Shown piece after piece: positions 1-28,857 of a stretch of DNA of 64,000 nucleotides. Location of the stretch: assembly GCA_963840455.1 (NCBI GenBank), contig CAWIYV010000010.1, positions 160,001 to 224,000 of the forward strand, written 5' to 3'. The notes under the pieces were generated by a model that was given only the letters and a program-made list of their open reading frames with translations, made no database searches and had not been told where the DNA came from. Position 1 is the stretch's first letter. Every line of letters begins with the position of its first letter. The DNA comes from Nitrospirota bacterium. Lineage in GTDB: Bacteria; Nitrospirota; UBA9217. The translations under genes were made by a program, and so were the position numbers.

Positions 1-762
1 ACCAGGCTGCAGACCGAAGGCCCGGAGGAGCAGAAATATCCACAAGCTCTCCAGCGCCCAGATGACCGTGGTCAGGAGCAGCACGGGCATGATCTCAGCC
101 GGCTCCGGCAGCATGCCCGTCTGGAATGCGCTGATCCTGTGGCGCACAATCTCGGGCACCCACGAGGGCACCGCCCGCTTCAGCACGATGAAGACGACGA
201 TGACCGCGGTGGCTGCTACGGCGAAGAGGCAGGCAATGATCAGCGCCCAGATCACCGGCCGCGGCATGTTGGCGGCAAAGAGATTCCACGATGCGGCCGC
301 AGCCAGGAAAAGCACCATCCAAGCGTCCACGGTGCGCTGAAAGACGATCGATCCGAGGGCAGCGGAACGGCGGACCCCGCAGTTGATCCTGGCAAGGTGG
401 GCGGCGTAGATGTCTCCCAGCTTCGCCGGCACCATATTGTCCACGAACAGGAAAAAGAACGCGAGCAGGCCGTATCGCCCGTTGCCGCACCGTCCCGGTA
501 TATGTTGTAGGCATCGCCTCCACCGCGCCCCGCGCACCGGATAGGTGGCATAGTGCGACAGCGCGGCAAGAAGCAGGAGCTGTTTGTCGCTGGCAGCGAC
601 CTCCCGCCATACCTGCGCCAGGTCCACGTACGAGGCCAGGAGCGCGAAGACCGCCACGGTAACCGCGATGCTGAGGAAGGTGTGCCAGCCCCAGAGCTTT
701 GGGCCAGCCCCTTCAGCGGGGAGAACAGGGTTCTGTTGCTCTTCAAGCGGTGAAATATTCAT
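1..762 (-). CDS. Lysylphosphatidylglycerol synthase TM / UPF0104 flippase-like membrane protein (runs off the window's left edge)
   Basis: Manual translation from ATG 762: MNISPLEEQQ...WGWHTFLSIAVTVAVFALLASYVDL...YPVRGARWRR...FVDNMVPAKLGDIY...GSIVFQRTVD. The RxxRW, NxxxPxxxGD and (E/Q)RxxD motifs are typical of this family. Not in the ORF track because no stop lies inside the window. Confidence 0.8.
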   Translation of the reverse strand, partial: MNISPLEEQQNPVLPAEGAGPKLWGWHTFLSIAVTVAVFALLASYVDLAQVWREVAASDKQLLLLAALSHYATYPVRGARWRRCLQHIPGRCGNGRYGLLAFFFLFVDNMVPAKLGDIYAAHLARINCGVRRSAALGSIVFQRTVDAWMVLFLAAAASWNLFAANMPRPVIWALIIACLFAVAATAVIVVFIVLKRAVPSWVPEIVRHRISAFQTGMLPEPAEIMPVLLLTTVIWALESLWIFLLLRAFGLQPG

Positions 763-17368: not shown

Positions 17369-17710
17369 TTATTCAATCTCTTCCAGCTTCAGCTCCCTGC
17401 TTCCGAGCAGATGGGCGAGGAGCGCGAAACCGCCGCAGGGCGCTGCTGTGCCGCCGCTCAACACGAAATCACAGTCCGCCTCGCGGAACGCGCAGGCTGT
17501 GCACACGCGGGCCTTCAATCCCTCAAGGGTGCGCGCGTCCGGCTTCACCGAGATCCCGGGTCTTTCCTGGGACAGTTGCCTGCCTTTCTTGATGAGCCCA
17601 TGGACCACAACGAAACCCTGGCATTCGAGATCTTCATTCCTGCCCGGTTTGTAGTATTGGCAGAAGTTAACGCAGAGCGTTGTGTCCTTTTTTGCTCTTT
17701 TTCGAGACAT
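17369..17710 (-). CDS. Small Cys-rich hypothetical protein divergent from the radical SAM gene
   Basis: CVNFC..C and CTAC...C...C (7 Cys). TATAAT lies 6 nt upstream of ATG 17710. Confidence 0.7.
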   Translation of the reverse strand: MSRKRAKKDTTLCVNFCQYYKPGRNEDLECQGFVVVHGLIKKGRQLSQERPGISVKPDARTLEGLKARVCTACAFREADCDFVLSGGTAAPCGGFALLAHLLGSRELKLEEIE

Positions 17711-17758
17711 GGGCATATTATAACAAAAAATCTAAGAACCATCGTGTATAATTGACTC

Positions 17759-18901
17759 ATGGGCTTTCATCTCACCAGACAGACAGCTCTCAAGTGGCTC
17801 GAAGCACCCTCGGTGTACCAGATCGCCCGGGACGAGGTCTATGAACTGGACGATGATTCCTTCCGCTTCCTCACCTCCTGTGCCTCCGAGGAAGGATGCG
17901 ACAATCGGGACAGCGCCTTCATCGACTACTGCCTTGAGGAGGGTCTTTTGACGCGGGAAAAGGTCGTGCTCAAGCGTCCGCACCTCAAACCTTCTCCGGA
18001 CCCTTCGCTCCGCTATCTTGAGCTGCAGCTGACCAGCCGCTGCAATCTCCGCTGCAGGCACTGTTACATCGGCGACGACACGCCCCGGGAGCTGAGCTCG
18101 GTCCAGGTCCGGGCGGTGTTGAAGGAGTTCGAGGAGATGCAGGGCCTGCGTGTGCTGCTCACCGGCGGCGAGCCCCTCCTCCACTCCCGGTTCGATGAGA
18201 TCAACGAGATGCTCCCCGACTTGTTCCTCAGGAAGGTCCTGTTCACCAACGGCGTCCTGCTCAAGAAGGACGTGCTGAATCGCCTCAAGGTCCACGAGAT
18301 CCAGGTGAGCATCGATGGTATGGCGGCAGCGCACGACGCCCTTCGCGGCGCCGGTACATGGGACGTCGCGCTCGACGCTGTGCGACGCGCCCTGGACGCC
18401 GGATTCGAGGTCTCGGTCTCGACCATGGTCCATGCCGGGAATCTCGGCGATTTCGATCCCATGGAAAAGCTCTTTAAATCACTCGGCATCAAGGACTGGA
18501 CCGTCGACGTGCCCTGCACCGCAGGGAGGCTGAGGGACAACCGTGAGCTGACGGTCAGTCCCGAGGTGGGCGGAAAATATCTCGGCTACGGATATGGCGG
18601 CGGGATGCACGCCACGGGACCGGGGTATGCCTGCGGCCTGCATCTCATGGCCGTACTGCCCGACGGCACCGCAGCGAAGTGCACCTTCTATGGGGACCGG
18701 TCAGTCGGCACCATCGGCGAGGGGCTTCATACCTGCTGGCAGCGCATCCGTCCCGTCAGGCTCGATAGCCTCGATTGCAGGTGCGAATATCTCGAAGCCT
18801 GCCGCGGCGGATGCCGGTACCGCGCAGAGCTCCTGAAAAATCCCCAAGGGAGGGACCTGTACCGCTGTTCGCTCTATGGGGTCATTGACAAAGCAGGATA
18901 G
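17759..18901 (+). CDS. Radical SAM/SPASM domain protein (putative peptide maturase)
   Basis: CNLRCRHC, TGGEP, FTNG and VSIDG, followed by SPASM-type Cys (CG..CTF..CRCEYLEACRGGCRYRA..DLYRC). Carries a ~80-aa N-terminal extension. Confidence 0.9.
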   Translation: MGFHLTRQTALKWLEAPSVYQIARDEVYELDDDSFRFLTSCASEEGCDNRDSAFIDYCLEEGLLTREKVVLKRPHLKPSPDPSLRYLELQLTSRCNLRCRHCYIGDDTPRELSSVQVRAVLKEFEEMQGLRVLLTGGEPLLHSRFDEINEMLPDLFLRKVLFTNGVLLKKDVLNRLKVHEIQVSIDGMAAAHDALRGAGTWDVALDAVRRALDAGFEVSVSTMVHAGNLGDFDPMEKLFKSLGIKDWTVDVPCTAGRLRDNRELTVSPEVGGKYLGYGYGGGMHATGPGYACGLHLMAVLPDGTAAKCTFYGDRSVGTIGEGLHTCWQRIRPVRLDSLDCRCEYLEACRGGCRYRAELLKNPQGRDLYRCSLYGVIDKAG

Positions 18902-18913
18902 AATTGTTACTAT
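18885..18913 (+). promoter_or_regulatory. sigma70 promoter of the small peptide gene
   Basis: TTGACA (18885-18890), 17 nt spacer, TACTAT (18908-18913). Confidence 0.75.
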
Positions 18914-18941
18914 TCAATCAATGATGAAAGGAGGAGGCACC

Positions 18942-19004
18942 ATGTCCATTAAAAAGGTAGCAAAGACCGCGGCAACGACGTGCAAGTGCAAAAGCTCCTG
19001 CTAG
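18942..19004 (+). CDS. 20-aa Cys-rich putative RiPP precursor MSIKKVAKTAATTCKCKSSC
   Basis: AGGAGGAGG RBS just upstream of the ATG, plus its own promoter and terminator. Starts 40 nt after the rSAM/SPASM stop codon. Confidence 0.75.
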   Translation: MSIKKVAKTAATTCKCKSSC

Positions 19005-19034
19005 CAGCACGCGACATCGCGCTCCAAACAATAC

Positions 19035-19070
19035 GAGCTCGGGAATATCTTCCCGAGCTCTTGTTTTTTT
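19035..19070 (+). terminator. Intrinsic terminator after the peptide gene
   Basis: GAGCTCGGGAA-TATC-TTCCCGAGCTC (11-bp stem) followed by TTGTTTTTTT. Confidence 0.85.
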
Positions 19071-19079
19071 CTGACATGA

Positions 19080-19235
19080 ATGGGGCTGCGGGAGCCGTCA
19101 CCGCCCACCATCGTCGACGAGCCGTAGGGAGAGCCCCCGGTGATCTCGCCGACGGTAATCTGCCGCTGCTCCGAAGCGGTAGATATGGCCGTACATGCTG
19201 TAGAGGGCGACTTGGACCTTCGCCTTGTCCGTCAT
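19080..19235 (-). pseudogene. wrbA: Internally deleted WrbA (NAD(P)H:quinone oxidoreductase) remnant
   Basis: MTDKAKVQVALYSMYGHIYR (WrbA N-terminus) is joined out of frame to SEQRQITVGEITGGSPYGSSTMVGGDGSRSP (WrbA C-terminal motif). Confidence 0.75.
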
Positions 19236-19507
19236 GCCACCTTCCTCCCGAACTCCTCCCGCGCCTCGAAGTTCCCTACGAACTGGTCCACCTTGATGCC
19301 GAGGTGCAGGCAGCGGATGTTGTTCATGCAGTCATCGGCATCGCTCTTGTCTATCTGGGTGACGAGCTCCTGCTTCCCCCGCTTGAACTTCAGGATGTAG
19401 GCGTTCTTCTCTTCGCTGAAGGTGAGGCCCACGCTCACCTTGTGCTTCTCGACGTCGGGATACATCTCCCGTATCTTTTCCTTTAATGCTACATTAGTGT
19501 ACTTCAT
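19232..19507 (-). CDS. Hypothetical protein
   Basis: 91-aa ORF with a GAGGGGG RBS. Its stop overlaps the wrbA remnant ATG. Confidence 0.75.
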   Translation of the reverse strand: MKYTNVALKEKIREMYPDVEKHKVSVGLTFSEEKNAYILKFKRGKQELVTQIDKSDADDCMNNIRCLHLGIKVDQFVGNFEAREEFGRKVA

Positions 19508-19622: not shown

Positions 19623-20108
19623 TTATCCCTCGATGACACCCCGCTCCTCCCAGAGGAACCAGTTACCTGTATCCGAGAGATGACTGTAGGTGTTCGCAAA
19701 GATCTCGTAGTGCTGCCGCTCTTCCTCGATCAACCTCGTGAACAGGGCCTTCTCCTTGTCCGTTTTGGCCGTTGCGAGTGACTTGCGGTAGAACTTTTCT
19801 CCTTCCTTTTCCATCTCCATGGCGATCTTGAAAGCATCGAGCTCGTCCTTGCTTGCCGCCACTTTTTTCATCATCGTGTCCTTCATGGACTCGAAGACCG
19901 TCTTGACCTTGCCCATGGGGCTCACGTCATCAATTTTGATGTTCATGCCCCTGATGAGGTCCGAGATCATGGTCAGGTGGCGTTTTTCATCCTCCGTGAT
20001 GCTAAGAAACATCTTCTTTCCGGCCTCATAGCCTGTTTTTCCGGCAGCCTCGGTGTAGAATTTGATGGCATCGGTCTCCATTTTCCTGGCCACTTCAAGT
20101 GCGTTCAT
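19623..20108 (-). CDS. Rubrerythrin/ferritin-like di-iron protein
   Basis: Duplicated AxxME...FY and EExxH motifs (EDEKRH, EEERQH). Confidence 0.85.
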   Translation of the reverse strand: MNALEVARKMETDAIKFYTEAAGKTGYEAGKKMFLSITEDEKRHLTMISDLIRGMNIKIDDVSPMGKVKTVFESMKDTMMKKVAASKDELDAFKIAMEMEKEGEKFYRKSLATAKTDKEKALFTRLIEEERQHYEIFANTYSHLSDTGNWFLWEERGVIEG

Positions 20109-26655: not shown

Positions 26656-28857
26656 ATGCTCAAGAATCTCCTGCTTATCACACCGCCCTTCACCCAGTTG
26701 AACACGACCTACCCGGCAACGCCTTACCTCAAAGGCTTCTTGAAATTGCATGGCTACAGGGTATTTCAGGCAGACCTGGGCATCGAGTTGATCAATAGAA
26801 TATTTTCCCGGGAAGGGTTCCAAGGACTGTTCGCCTCGGCGGGCCATAGCGACAAACAGCTCTCGCAGAACTCGCTCCGGATCATGCGCAATGAACAGTA
26901 CTATCTCCGAACCGTGGACCACGTGATGAGCTTCCTGCAGTACCGTGACAATACGCCTGCCCGGCTCATCTGCAGTGATAATTTTCTGCCGAGGGCTTCG
27001 CGCTTCGATCAATTGCCCGACCTGGAATGGTCCTTCGGAACCATGGGCGTGAACGACCAGGCCCGGTTCCTGGCCACCTTATATATTGAGGATGTGGGCG
27101 ACCTCATCAAGGAGGCCATAACGCCCTACTTTGGCTTCAGCCGCTATGCGGAAAAACTGGGGATATCGGCCCATTCTTTTGCTTCCCTTGACGCAGCCCT
27201 GCAGCAGCCCGAAAATATCATCGAGGCCTGGATGCTTGACCTGCTGAAAGGGCACATCGAGCAGCATCGTCCCGATGTCACGGGGATCACCATCCCCTTT
27301 CCCGGAAATCTGTATGCAGGATTGAGGTGCGGTCAATGCATCAAGAAGAATTATCCTTACCTGAAGATCATCGCAGGCGGTGGGTTCGTGAACACCGAGC
27401 TTCGTGAATTGTCAGAACCCGCGGTCTTTAACTACGTGGACCATATAACCCTTGACGACGGCGAACTCCCTTTCCTGAACATTCTGAAATTCCTTCGCGG
27501 TGACATTGAGCCGTGCGACCTCAGGAGGACCTTCATGAGGGTTGGCGGTGAAGTGCGGTATTTCGACAATGACGCGGAAAAGGACCCTTCCCTTGCCGAG
27601 ACCGGCTGTCCGGACTATTCGGACCTGCCATCGGACAAGTATCTCTCGCTCATTGAGGTAGCAAATCCCATGCACCGCCTGTGGTCCGACGGACGATGGA
27701 ACAAGCTCACCATCGCCCATGGCTGCTACTGGCATCAATGCTCCTTCTGTGACACCACCCTCGATTACATACAGCGCTATGCGAGCGCGCCGGCCAGCGT
27801 GCTGGTCGACAGGATCGAGCAGGTGATCGCCCAAACCGGCCAGACAGGCTTTCATTTTGTCGATGAGGCCGCCCCCCCTGCGGTGTTGAAGGAACTGGCT
27901 CTGGAACTGCTGAGGCGAGAGGTTGGCATCTCCTGGTGGGTGAACATCCGCTTTGAAAGCGCCTTTAGCCGGGACCTCTGCAGGCTCCTGGCAGCATCAG
28001 GCTGCATTGCCGTGACCGGCGGCCTGGAAGCGGCCTCTGACCGGATATTGAAGCTCATGAACAAGGGCGTGACCGTCAAGCAAGCGGCGCAAGCGTGCCG
28101 CAATTTCAGCGAAGCAGGCATCATGGTCCACGCCTATCTGATGTATGGATTCCCCACGCAGACCGAGCAGGAGACCATCGACGCCCTTGAGATCGTGCGC
28201 CAGTTCTTCCGAGAGGAGCTCATCCAATCCGCGTTCTGGCATCAGTTCACCGCTACCGTTCACAGTGATGTAGGAAGGAACCCGGAGAAATACCAGTGTA
28301 GGATCAACGGACGCCCTGCCGGCACGTTCGCCAGGAACGATCTCGTGCACGAAGACCCCACGGGCTGCAACCATCAGGCTTATGCACAGGGCCTGAAAAA
28401 AGCAGCGTACAACTTCATGCACGGCCTCGGCACGGACCTGCCGGTCAAAACATGGTTCGACTTCAAGGTCCCCGCGGCCTCAATAAAAAGAAGTTACGTG
28501 CAGCAGGCGATAAACGAGAAGCCTGCTGTCGAGGGTGAATTGATGAGGTCCAGGATGGTCTGGATCGAGAACCTGCCGCACTCCCTGCAGATCGATCCGG
28601 CGAAGAAGAGGAATAAAGCTGGGGAAGATAAATTTGTTTTTTATTCCAAGACGGAAACGTTCACGCTGTCGACGACCGGCGAGTTCGGGGTATGGTTGAA
28701 CGCCGTGCTCAGCAGGTCCTCCCTGCAGCATTCGACATTCATGACCCTCGAAGAGCTCAAGCCGGAATATGAGAAACAATTCTCCTCGGCCTTTGGAACT
28801 TTTCTGAGGTCGAGGGAATGGAAGACCTTGCGGGAAAAGGGATTGCTGCTGATCTGA
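26656..28857 (+). CDS. B12-binding-domain radical SAM protein
   Basis: PPFTQLNTTYPA, GCYWHQCSFCD, HFVDEA and HAYLMYGFP. Confidence 0.85.
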   Translation: MLKNLLLITPPFTQLNTTYPATPYLKGFLKLHGYRVFQADLGIELINRIFSREGFQGLFASAGHSDKQLSQNSLRIMRNEQYYLRTVDHVMSFLQYRDNTPARLICSDNFLPRASRFDQLPDLEWSFGTMGVNDQARFLATLYIEDVGDLIKEAITPYFGFSRYAEKLGISAHSFASLDAALQQPENIIEAWMLDLLKGHIEQHRPDVTGITIPFPGNLYAGLRCGQCIKKNYPYLKIIAGGGFVNTELRELSEPAVFNYVDHITLDDGELPFLNILKFLRGDIEPCDLRRTFMRVGGEVRYFDNDAEKDPSLAETGCPDYSDLPSDKYLSLIEVANPMHRLWSDGRWNKLTIAHGCYWHQCSFCDTTLDYIQRYASAPASVLVDRIEQVIAQTGQTGFHFVDEAAPPAVLKELALELLRREVGISWWVNIRFESAFSRDLCRLLAASGCIAVTGGLEAASDRILKLMNKGVTVKQAAQACRNFSEAGIMVHAYLMYGFPTQTEQETIDALEIVRQFFREELIQSAFWHQFTATVHSDVGRNPEKYQCRINGRPAGTFARNDLVHEDPTGCNHQAYAQGLKKAAYNFMHGLGTDLPVKTWFDFKVPAASIKRSYVQQAINEKPAVEGELMRSRMVWIENLPHSLQIDPAKKRNKAGEDKFVFYSKTETFTLSTTGEFGVWLNAVLSRSSLQHSTFMTLEELKPEYEKQFSSAFGTFLRSREWKTLREKGLLLI

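Follow-up and report, generated by a model that had tools for sequence, protein, structure and literature searches.

Organization of the locus

The window analyzed here is the whole 64,000-nucleotide (nt) stretch of contig CAWIYV010000010.1 (positions 160,001 to 224,000) from a Nitrospirota bacterium. It carries a gene for a radical S-adenosylmethionine (SAM) enzyme of the SPASM type, 380 amino acids (aa) long, followed after a gap of 40 nt (18902..18941) by an open reading frame (ORF) of 20 codons that encodes a basic peptide ending in a cysteine-rich core. The original prediction held that the two form a maturase and its precursor, that is, a system for a peptide that is made on ribosomes and modified after translation (RiPP), and that the micro-ORF has a ribosome-binding site, a promoter-like site and a terminator of its own. 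All of these parts are present at the positions listed below, the ATG of the micro-ORF lying at 18942 and its translation being MSIKKVAKTAATTCKCKSSC, then stop.

17745..17752, plus strand: extended -10-like element TGTATAAT, ending 6 nt before the enzyme ATG, which has no Shine-Dalgarno sequence (from the sequence)
17759..18901, plus strand: gene of the radical SAM/SPASM candidate peptide maturase (P0001), 380 aa
17759..17998, plus strand: N-terminal ~80 residues, a domain like the RiPP recognition element (RRE), predicted to bind peptide, with four strands and two helices (predicted structure)
18041..18064, plus strand: CNLRCRHC, the CX3CX2C motif (C95, C99, C102) of the radical SAM [4Fe-4S] cluster, invariant in 28/28 orthologues
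18632..18868, plus strand: SPASM-type auxiliary-cluster region, C292-x10-G-x4-C308 ... C340-x-C342-x5-C348-x3-C352 ... C370 (28-orthologue alignment)
18885..18913, plus strand: sigma-70-like promoter TTGACA-17-TACTAT for the micro-ORF (consensus scan)
18929..18937, plus strand: Shine-Dalgarno sequence AGGAGGAGG, 4 nt before the micro-ORF ATG (from the sequence)
18942..19004, plus strand: 20-codon candidate precursor gene (P0002), an ORF conserved in relatives
18942..18977, plus strand: precursor residues 1-12, a putative basic recognition part M-[TSKV]-I-[KR]-K-V-x-K and a variable linker (28 peptides)
18978..19001, plus strand: precursor residues 13-20, the core T-C-K-C-K-S-S-C, ending exactly at the stop codon (28 peptides)
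19035..19070, plus strand: intrinsic terminator with an 11-bp stem, a 4-nt loop and the T-run TTGTTTTTTT (hairpin 19035..19060, 7 GC pairs; scan)

A conserved gene of 20 codons

If the micro-ORF is a gene, homologues of the enzyme should be followed by similar cysteine-containing micro-ORFs, and this is what we found. An enzyme search over 41 related genomes returned 30 loci, and in 23 of them a 20-codon ORF lies downstream of the enzyme orthologue, with the pattern M-[ST..]-I-[KR]-K-V-x-K-x4-T-C-K-C-K-S-S-C-stop. Of the remaining seven, L025, L027 and L029 are truncated where their contigs end and L030 is a distant paralogue; in L022 the peptide is encoded at another place in the genome, and none is recognisable in L011 or L023. 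The 23 ORFs use four codons each for Val6 and Thr13 and three for Ile3, they terminate at all three stop codons (TAG 5, TGA 13, TAA 5), and each is preceded, at a distance of 5-9 nt, by a GAAAGGAGG-like sequence.

A wider set was collected with a DNA pattern for the core alone, applied to one genome per species, and its counts are among the matches listed. The pattern identified at least 120 loci, two of which are chance matches (L061, with an internal stop, and L088, inside a long ORF). A start codon lies exactly 12 codons before Thr13 in 112 ORFs among the matches listed, comprising 112 distinct DNA sequences and 100 distinct peptides, and 77 of these 112 have GGAG or GAGG upstream. At three residues whose codons the search pattern left free, the entropies at codon positions 1/2/3 over the same ORFs are 0.07/0/1.31 (Ile3), 0/0.22/0.87 (Lys5) and 1.05/0.13/1.98 (Val6); the concentration of variation in third positions at unconstrained residues indicates selection on the amino-acid sequence. 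This periodicity and the conserved ribosome-binding site suggest that the micro-ORF is translated, as had been proposed. A reversed-pattern control gave no match in the 401 genomes of the phylum sample described below.

When 28 peptides are aligned, C14, C16, K17, S19 and C20 are invariant, and I3, K5, T13 and K15 are kept in at least 90%. Core variants next to an enzyme include N-C-K-C-K-S-S-C (G207) and V-C-K-C-K-S-S-C (G091 and G048), and G022 has a form with T-C-T-C-K; since Val or Asn replaces Thr13 in some of them, this residue is not invariant in the strict sense. We conclude that the micro-ORF is a real, conserved gene, and its recurrence is far beyond chance.

A regulatory leader peptide or attenuator, or a small RNA, would account for the shortness of the ORF, for a promoter-like site of its own and for a terminator located 30 nt after its stop. 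We regard such an element, in place of a functional peptide, as extremely unlikely, in view of the selection acting on the amino-acid sequence while synonymous sites drift. Moreover, no consistent feature follows the ORF on its own strand, the next genes of the window being convergent, and the micro-ORF region has no Rfam match near the gathering score (best E 0.16, far below it).

A 19-residue form, M-I-[KR]-K-[VL]-S-[GS]-K-[AS]-M-P-T-C-K-C-K-x-S-C, with one leader residue fewer and Pro at residue 12, was seen in six loci, five labelled Thermodesulfovibrio (L083, L100, L105, L143 and L166) and one Nitrospiraceae (L118); its gene stands apart from that of the enzyme, flanked by radA-like or DUF2148 genes on one side and TPR genes on the other. 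In the window and some close relatives (L002 and L004), an in-frame ATG within the 3' end of the enzyme gene (18876..19004, plus strand) opens a 42-aa ORF that ends in the peptide. Since other loci lack this extension, it is the 20-codon form that is conserved. A collection of 15 billion predicted proteins contains none of three exact peptide sequences looked up in it.

Association of the peptide with the enzyme

The tie between peptide and enzyme that the original prediction postulated is borne out in an even set of 401 genomes of the phylum, in which the enzyme was sought with a 28-orthologue profile at E<=1e-80. The peptide pattern occurs in 151 genomes, as a single copy except for two copies in G047, and the enzyme in 162; both are found in 149, the peptide only in 2, the enzyme only in 13 and neither in 237. 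At least 4 of the 13 enzyme-only genomes (G022, G207, G091, G048) hold the variant cores described above, so the pattern undercounts. Families are either nearly full in peptide (52/63, 32/35, 14/14, 10/14 and 10/13 genomes) or empty (0/76, 0/40 and 0/28), the enzyme follows the same full-or-empty pattern, and all 14 genomes of genus g48 hold both genes.

Within the wider set, whose loci are fixed 8-kb blocks, an enzyme orthologue (39-92% identical) lies in the same block and on the same strand in 78 of 120 loci among the matches listed. In nearly all 78 the enzyme match ends ~50-250 nt before the peptide core, two loci being farther apart. Because the blocks are fixed, the 42 of 120 loci without an enzyme are partly an artefact and do not give a rate of separation. 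Among five genomes with an unlinked peptide, four have a full-length enzyme elsewhere (E 1e-154, 1e-115, 3e-188 and 3e-182), and the fifth, a metagenome-assembled genome (MAG) of 1.4 Mb, has no full-length enzyme; the unlinked peptide genes have TPR, RadA, M48 peptidase, HD-domain and cytochrome c genes as neighbours.

The association extends to archaea. Of 81 genomes from the class to which an Archaeoglobaceae-labelled genome belongs, 5 have the core, in 1-3 copies, and in six Archaeoglobus-like loci the genes run amidohydrolase, peptide, enzyme, with the precursor upstream of an enzyme ~39% identical to that of the window. The co-occurrence of the two genes when unlinked and their reversed order in archaea are evidence more independent of relatedness. 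Pairs are also present in MAGs that their depositors labelled Thermodesulfobacteriota, Deltaproteobacteria, Syntrophaceae, Syntrophorhabdus, 'Proteobacteria' and Chloroflexota. As records labelled Thermodesulfovibrio contain the peptide, there may be carriers in cultured genera.

Some genomes have multiple precursor copies: two or three are found in Archaeoglobus-like genomes (G446, G472, G042), and at L071 two identical copies flank a methyltransferase gene and a 107-aa ORF. In the six archaeal loci (L196, L191, L193, L194, L195, L084), the gene directly upstream of the peptide encodes an amidohydrolase-family protein of 406-413 aa, which could be a component of the system or a mere neighbour.

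Architecture of the enzyme and its predicted complex with the peptide

The enzyme is a member of the radical SAM superfamily: it matches PF04055 (Radical_SAM) in Pfam with E 1.5e-21 and 77.7 bits (cut-off 29.5), and its CX3CX2C motif and a GGEP motif are invariant in the 28 orthologues. Towards the C-terminus, C292, C308, C340, C342, C348 and C352 are invariant and C370 is kept in at least 90% of the same orthologues, an arrangement that follows the seven-cysteine SPASM motif of two auxiliary clusters, CX9-15GX4C...CX2CX5CX3C...C, the CX2C spacing being x1 here and x4 in some orthologues. These seven conserved cysteines, and the structural alignment to known SPASM proteins, support the SPASM assignment made at the outset. 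Cys253, a short way ahead of the SPASM region, gives way to another residue in several orthologues. In CteB, an open iron site on the first auxiliary cluster accepts the substrate thiol, and by analogy the replacement may point to such a site here.

None of the cut-offs of curated NCBIfam radical SAM/SPASM maturase models (ScmE, AhbD, NirJ, MftC, WgkB, GeoRSP, ACGX, StsB, AlbA, SkfB and others) is reached. The best matches of the window enzyme, AhbD (87.1 bits, cut-off 500) and ScmE (86.7 bits, cut-off 400), are sub-threshold and, like the others, cover only core residues 85-269; the best E over the 28 orthologues is 7.6e-31.

The AlphaFold (AF2) model of the enzyme has a mean predicted local distance difference test score (pLDDT) of 91.3 and a predicted template modelling score (pTM) of 0.91. 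Ahead of the barrel, it predicts strands at residues 3-5, 9-13, 17-21 and 26-29 and helices at 32-41 and 53-60. Foldseek places SkfB, CteB and SuiB in its top ranks, with BlsE third among them. With a second aligner, SuiB gives Z 26.5 (residues 2..375 of the model on 1..439 of the chain, 354 aligned residues, root-mean-square deviation 4.1), SkfB follows with Z 26.1, and CteB and anSME reach ~23.9, aligned from residue 79-83 onward; the alignments of SuiB, CteB and anSME run through the enzyme C-terminus, to about residue 375. Identity to SuiB and SkfB is 15-19%. A profile search against the PDB aligns CteB from enzyme residue 13 and finds PqqE as a distant match (1.1e-15).

Enzyme and peptide were co-folded, each with its own alignment, together with SAM and three [4Fe-4S] clusters. 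Scores of 0.92, 0.84 and 0.85 were obtained, versus 0.00, 0.01 and 0.00 for the controls, with partner pLDDT of at least 60 and contact agreement between runs of at least 57%; of 80 solved complexes 58 attain the pass mark, as do 2 of 110 mismatched pairs. In the model, peptide residues 2-6 would pair with enzyme strand 26-31 and helix 54-61, touching residues 18-19, 26-31, 33-34, 37 and 49-61, and the remaining peptide, including its Cys core, would meet barrel strands and SPASM residues 292-296, 308-310 and 347-352. The co-fold suggested as a check on the pair thus passes against its controls, as a predicted likeness to known maturase-precursor complexes; it is no proof of binding. The N-terminal recognition element that had been proposed is likewise supported by prediction, since the SuiB alignment takes in the first ~80 residues and the co-fold holds the peptide N-terminus there; RREs are PqqD-like domains that resemble a winged helix and take up the leader as an extra beta-strand. 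Recognition domain, radical SAM barrel and SPASM domain would together make up the architecture of a RiPP maturase.

It is very likely, in our judgement, that the 380-aa enzyme and the 20-mer are an enzyme-substrate pair. One might instead regard the peptide as an unmodified micro-protein, such as a metal or thiol buffer or a basic peptide associated with ribosomes or nucleic acids, whose adjacency to an enzyme with another substrate is inherited synteny. The peptide is indeed often alone among unrelated neighbours, two genomes hold it without the enzyme, and a conserved Cys-rich protein of 114 aa encoded beside the enzyme offers a possible alternative substrate. Co-occurrence holds, however, when the genes are unlinked and across the gene-order inversion between domains, and only closer relatives have the 114-aa neighbour, which occurs in 31 of the L049-L196 loci. 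With the predicted recognition domain and the co-fold also speaking for a peptide substrate, this alternative appears highly improbable.

In two loci (L134:5769-7007 and L150:5903-7033), the enzyme orthologue has an out-of-frame middle with 3-4 in-frame stops (TGA, TAG) beside an intact peptide gene, which could be either a pseudogene or an indel error of the MAG.

Expression signals

The promoter-like site of the micro-ORF, whose -35 overlaps the I-D-K codons near the enzyme C-terminus, has 10 of 12 consensus matches and a TG before its -10. It lies 28 nt before the ATG, and the same spacing is kept in the genus and the nearest relatives (L001-L007), L007 having a perfect TTGACA-17-TATAAT; farther afield, most loci show no recognisable site. 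As a background to these motifs, the consensus scan counted 2 promoter-like sites versus 0.6 expected and 5 terminator-like sites versus 1.9 expected. Most of the 23 related loci likewise have a GC-rich hairpin and a T-run after the micro-ORF, and the terminator, being readable on both strands, may also end the convergent 91-aa and rubrerythrin genes. Of the proposed independent transcription unit, then, the promoter and terminator motifs stand, and conservation of the promoter is limited to close relatives. Read-through from the enzyme gene into the micro-ORF may also occur.

Upstream of the enzyme, 22 of 27 orthologous loci have TGnTATAAT or TATACT at 5-8 nt from the ATG. A start codon without a Shine-Dalgarno sequence and with a -10-like element at this distance suggests a leaderless enzyme mRNA; judging from these motifs, a leaderless, weakly translated enzyme mRNA may be accompanied by a strongly translated substrate. 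In metatranscriptome contigs, the 5' part of the enzyme gene is covered in four runs, and one contig of 151 nt (18875..19025) spans the micro-ORF. The latter begins upstream of the -10 and therefore fits read-through or DNA carry-over.

Between the enzyme and the divergent gene for the 114-aa protein (17717..17752), ATTATAACAAAAA can be read on the minus strand as an extended -10, and it adjoins the start of the 114-aa gene. Two conserved elements thus stand back to back between the two genes, both of which may be leaderless.

Genomic neighbourhood

In the window, no protease or ABC exporter adjoins the pair, as the original prediction had noted. The same applies more broadly: in none of the lineages examined did we find a leader-cleavage motif, protease, ABC exporter or immunity gene beside the pair, nor did the neighbourhoods examined contain an accessory gene that different lineages share. 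These observations bear on a further explanation, that of a secreted antimicrobial sactipeptide or ranthipeptide (a bacteriocin) with export and immunity genes elsewhere in the genome. Many radical SAM/SPASM maturases with an RRE do make antimicrobials, SkfB and CteB-like enzymes are the top structural matches, and some archaeal genomes have 2-3 precursor copies. Nevertheless, in addition to the missing companion genes, the core is nearly identical across phyla and domains, whereas bacteriocin cores diversify, and the gene is single-copy and near-universal in whole families; we would be greatly surprised if the product were a bacteriocin.

A 2-oxoacid oxidoreductase, the Cys-rich 114-aa gene and a rubrerythrin gene flank the pair in closer relatives only, and we treat this arrangement as lineage synteny. 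The Cys-rich protein, of 114-115 aa (17369..17716, minus strand), is encoded divergently from the enzyme and upstream of 2-oxoacid:acceptor oxidoreductase genes; besides the 31 wider loci mentioned above, its gene lies beside the enzyme in 22 of the 30 related loci. It matches no Pfam or NCBIfam family, and in the ESM Atlas it falls in 'hypothetical protein' clusters only, from Nitrospirota and Thermodesulfobacteriota. On the other side, genes for a 91-aa protein of unknown family (19232..19507, minus strand) and a rubrerythrin-family protein (19623..20108, minus strand) converge on the micro-ORF terminator, and rubrerythrin is the convergent neighbour in 29 wider loci.

A link to 2-oxoacid:ferredoxin oxidoreductase was considered and discarded, as the ~555-aa ORFs that follow Thermodesulfovibrio peptides encode TPR proteins and resemble the alpha subunit in size only. 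Candidates for conserved accessory genes, namely the amidohydrolase (6 archaeal loci), an ATP-grasp-like gene (2 Thermodesulfobacteriota-type loci) and the methyltransferase of L071, were likewise set aside, none being shared across lineages. A 733-aa protein encoded 8 kb downstream (26656..28857, plus strand), with a Radical_SAM domain at residues 353-512, is apparently unrelated to the pair.

Proposed chemistry and role

All together, we consider it likely that the two genes constitute a new, SCIFF-like, intracellular two-gene system of the RiPP type. A RiPP is a ribosomal precursor encoded with its enzyme and recognised by it; coding signal, adjacency, co-occurrence and the predicted complex agree with this description, and the modification itself is proposed by analogy. 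A highly expressed 20-residue precursor would be recognised through its basic N-terminus, M-T/S-I-K/R-K-V, by the RRE-like domain of the enzyme, and its core, T-C-K-C-K-x-S-C, would enter the barrel and come to lie with the SAM cluster on one side and the first auxiliary cluster on the other. SAM, cleaved reductively, would supply a 5'-deoxyadenosyl radical able to abstract a hydrogen from a core residue, and the thiol of a core cysteine, probably held on the auxiliary cluster, would capture the carbon radical, yielding one or more intramolecular thioether rings (sactionine or ranthionine). In a sactipeptide the Cys sulfur is bonded to the alpha-carbon of the acceptor residue, in a ranthipeptide to its beta- or gamma-carbon. 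Because of the invariant cysteines and the analogy with CteB, SkfB and AlbA, we lean, by a little, towards thioether chemistry, given that the pair is real.

A true pair might also work by a different chemistry: a C-C cross-link of the MftC or PqqE kind, oxidative decarboxylation at the C-terminal Cys, epimerisation or Cys oxidation, the product being a small peptide-derived redox cofactor or metal ligand, perhaps trimmed by unlinked housekeeping peptidases. The peptide always ends at Cys20, and its core stays invariant even where enzyme identity has fallen to 39-45%; such a pattern is what cofactor precursors like PqqA and MftA typically show. Generic NCBIfam matches include the mycofactocin maturase, PqqE and anSME are among the profile and structural ones, and the phyletic pattern is housekeeping-like. 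Set against this, thioether RiPP cores have as their hallmark just such a set of three invariant cysteines within eight residues, the enzyme gets 80.8 bits from the MftC model (cut-off 265), and no peptidase, flavoenzyme or cofactor-pathway gene is common across lineages. We therefore consider a non-thioether product rather unlikely.

The absence of conserved protease, exporter and immunity genes, the near-invariant core and the single-copy, near-universal presence within families suggest that the modified 20-mer stays in the cell, and an intracellular housekeeping role, for example in redox, metal or sulfur handling, seems to us reasonably probable. A bolder and rather improbable proposal is that the 20-mer, or its C-K-C-K-x-S-C fragment, is a new ribosomally derived cofactor or a metal or sulfur carrier in core anaerobic energy and redox metabolism. 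If so, it would serve Thermodesulfovibrionia-type Nitrospirota, some Thermodesulfobacteriota and Archaeoglobus-like archaea, and would be a third class of peptide-derived cofactor beside pyrroloquinoline quinone (PQQ) and mycofactocin, spread between bacteria and archaea.

Several points weigh against the two-gene RiPP-type system. The Pfam SPASM model has no match to the enzyme at E<=1, where only PF04055 and Fer4_12 are reported. The co-fold lies outside the calibration of its mark (the partner, with fewer than 30 residues, is shorter than any used there, and own alignments were used), and since complexes of a leader with an RRE, SuiB-SuiA among them, have been solved, the pass may stem from likeness and not from binding. 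As the genomes are related, the co-occurrence counts overstate independent support and are descriptive, with no statistical test. Two genomes, G169 (99% complete) and G366 (94%), hold the peptide without an orthologous enzyme, their best generic radical SAM matches being 7e-33 and 2e-29, which counts against obligate pairing. Conversely, no peptide was found near the enzyme in G006, G010, G172, G278 or G320; a looser pattern found none anywhere in G006 or G010, where the cores could be divergent. The RNA support for expression is weak, consisting of short contigs that may be DNA carry-over. Finally, the cross-link type, the acceptor residues, the cellular location and the role are all things that we infer.

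The 20-codon gene is too short for gene callers and was never annotated, and yet this peptide is among the most conserved features of its lineage, being present in 151 of 401 genomes of the phylum and in archaea as well. Its distribution is closer to that of a cofactor or housekeeping factor than to that of an antibiotic. If the enzyme modifies the peptide, the pair would represent a new and very compact radical SAM RiPP family. As a 20-mer is easily synthesised and cultured-genus carriers may be available, chemistry and role are directly testable. From a methodological point of view, the case illustrates how much conserved micro-gene content is missed by standard annotation.

Comparison with known systems

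A match to a described precursor family would have deprived the peptide of its novelty, but the search returned none: 0 of 28 peptides match any NCBIfam or Pfam model at E<=10. A full-text search of the literature, which did not extend to subscription journals or supplementary tables, found no mention of the peptide or its motif, nor of any radical SAM RiPP from these taxa; genome-mining lists in such sources may include this enzyme.

If the core is divided into two X-x-x-C units, T-C-K-C and K-S-S-C, of which the first is N-C-K-C in one natural variant, it recalls, among thioether RiPPs, the NxxC-type short-range thioether RiPPs of streptococci named in PMC11851443. The likeness is formal only, and the model of the streptococcal-type maturase WgkB gives ~80 bits against a cut-off of 650. 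From archaea, CrpC of Methanococcus voltae is described as a SPASM enzyme with an RRE that installs ranthionines on the Cys-rich substrate CrpA (PMC13692751). To go by that description, CrpA is a large Cys-rich protein, in contrast to the 20-mer found here.

Our pair resembles PqqA/PqqE and MftA/MftC in its very short precursor, whose invariant C-terminal core runs up to the stop codon, and in its radical SAM/SPASM enzyme, and also in its housekeeping-like distribution, which recalls the phyletic pattern of PQQ and mycofactocin. It differs in that the companion pathway genes of these cofactors are not conserved beside it and in that the enzyme falls short of the MftC cut-off, as given above. 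The PQQ and mycofactocin cores, moreover, use Glu/Tyr or Val/Tyr, not Cys.

The best whole-length structural matches to the window enzyme are SuiB and SkfB, of the SuiB-SuiA and SkfB-SkfA pairs. In the SuiB-SuiA structure the leader is held by the N-terminal RRE, and the RRE-like domain would hold it in the same way in our model. SuiB forms the Lys-Trp C-C bond of streptide, whereas the peptide studied here contains no Trp. In SkfB a twitch domain takes the place of a full SPASM domain, and its gene is part of a multi-gene killing-factor operon.

In concept, the pair comes closest to SCIFF (six cysteines in forty-five residues) with its maturase CteB/Tte1186 (thermocellin-type ranthipeptides). 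Both peptides have a Lys/Ile-rich N-terminus and a Cys-rich core, and CteB, like the enzyme of the window, combines an RRE (RRE-like here, as modelled), a radical SAM barrel and a SPASM domain. SCIFF is conserved across a whole lineage of anaerobes with no protease or exporter, as is our pair, and a housekeeping-like role is suspected for it in clostridia; to our knowledge, the function of SCIFF, the sole comparable case, is still unknown. The pair nonetheless falls outside the SCIFF family: the peptide has 20 aa and 3 Cys, against ~45 aa and 6 Cys in SCIFF, the SCIFF precursor model, like the rest of NCBIfam, has no match among the 28 peptides at E<=10, the 21 families matched by the 28 enzymes at E<=1e-20 do not include the SCIFF maturase, and the hosts of the pair, namely Nitrospirota, MAGs labelled Thermodesulfobacteriota and Archaeoglobus-like archaea, differ from those of SCIFF. 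What we report is, most likely, an undescribed family within a known kind, that of the radical SAM/SPASM RiPPs, and it is marked by a 20-residue precursor, a near-invariant C-K-C-K-x-S-C end, frequent unlinking of the two genes, a lineage-wide single copy and a presence in both bacteria and archaea.

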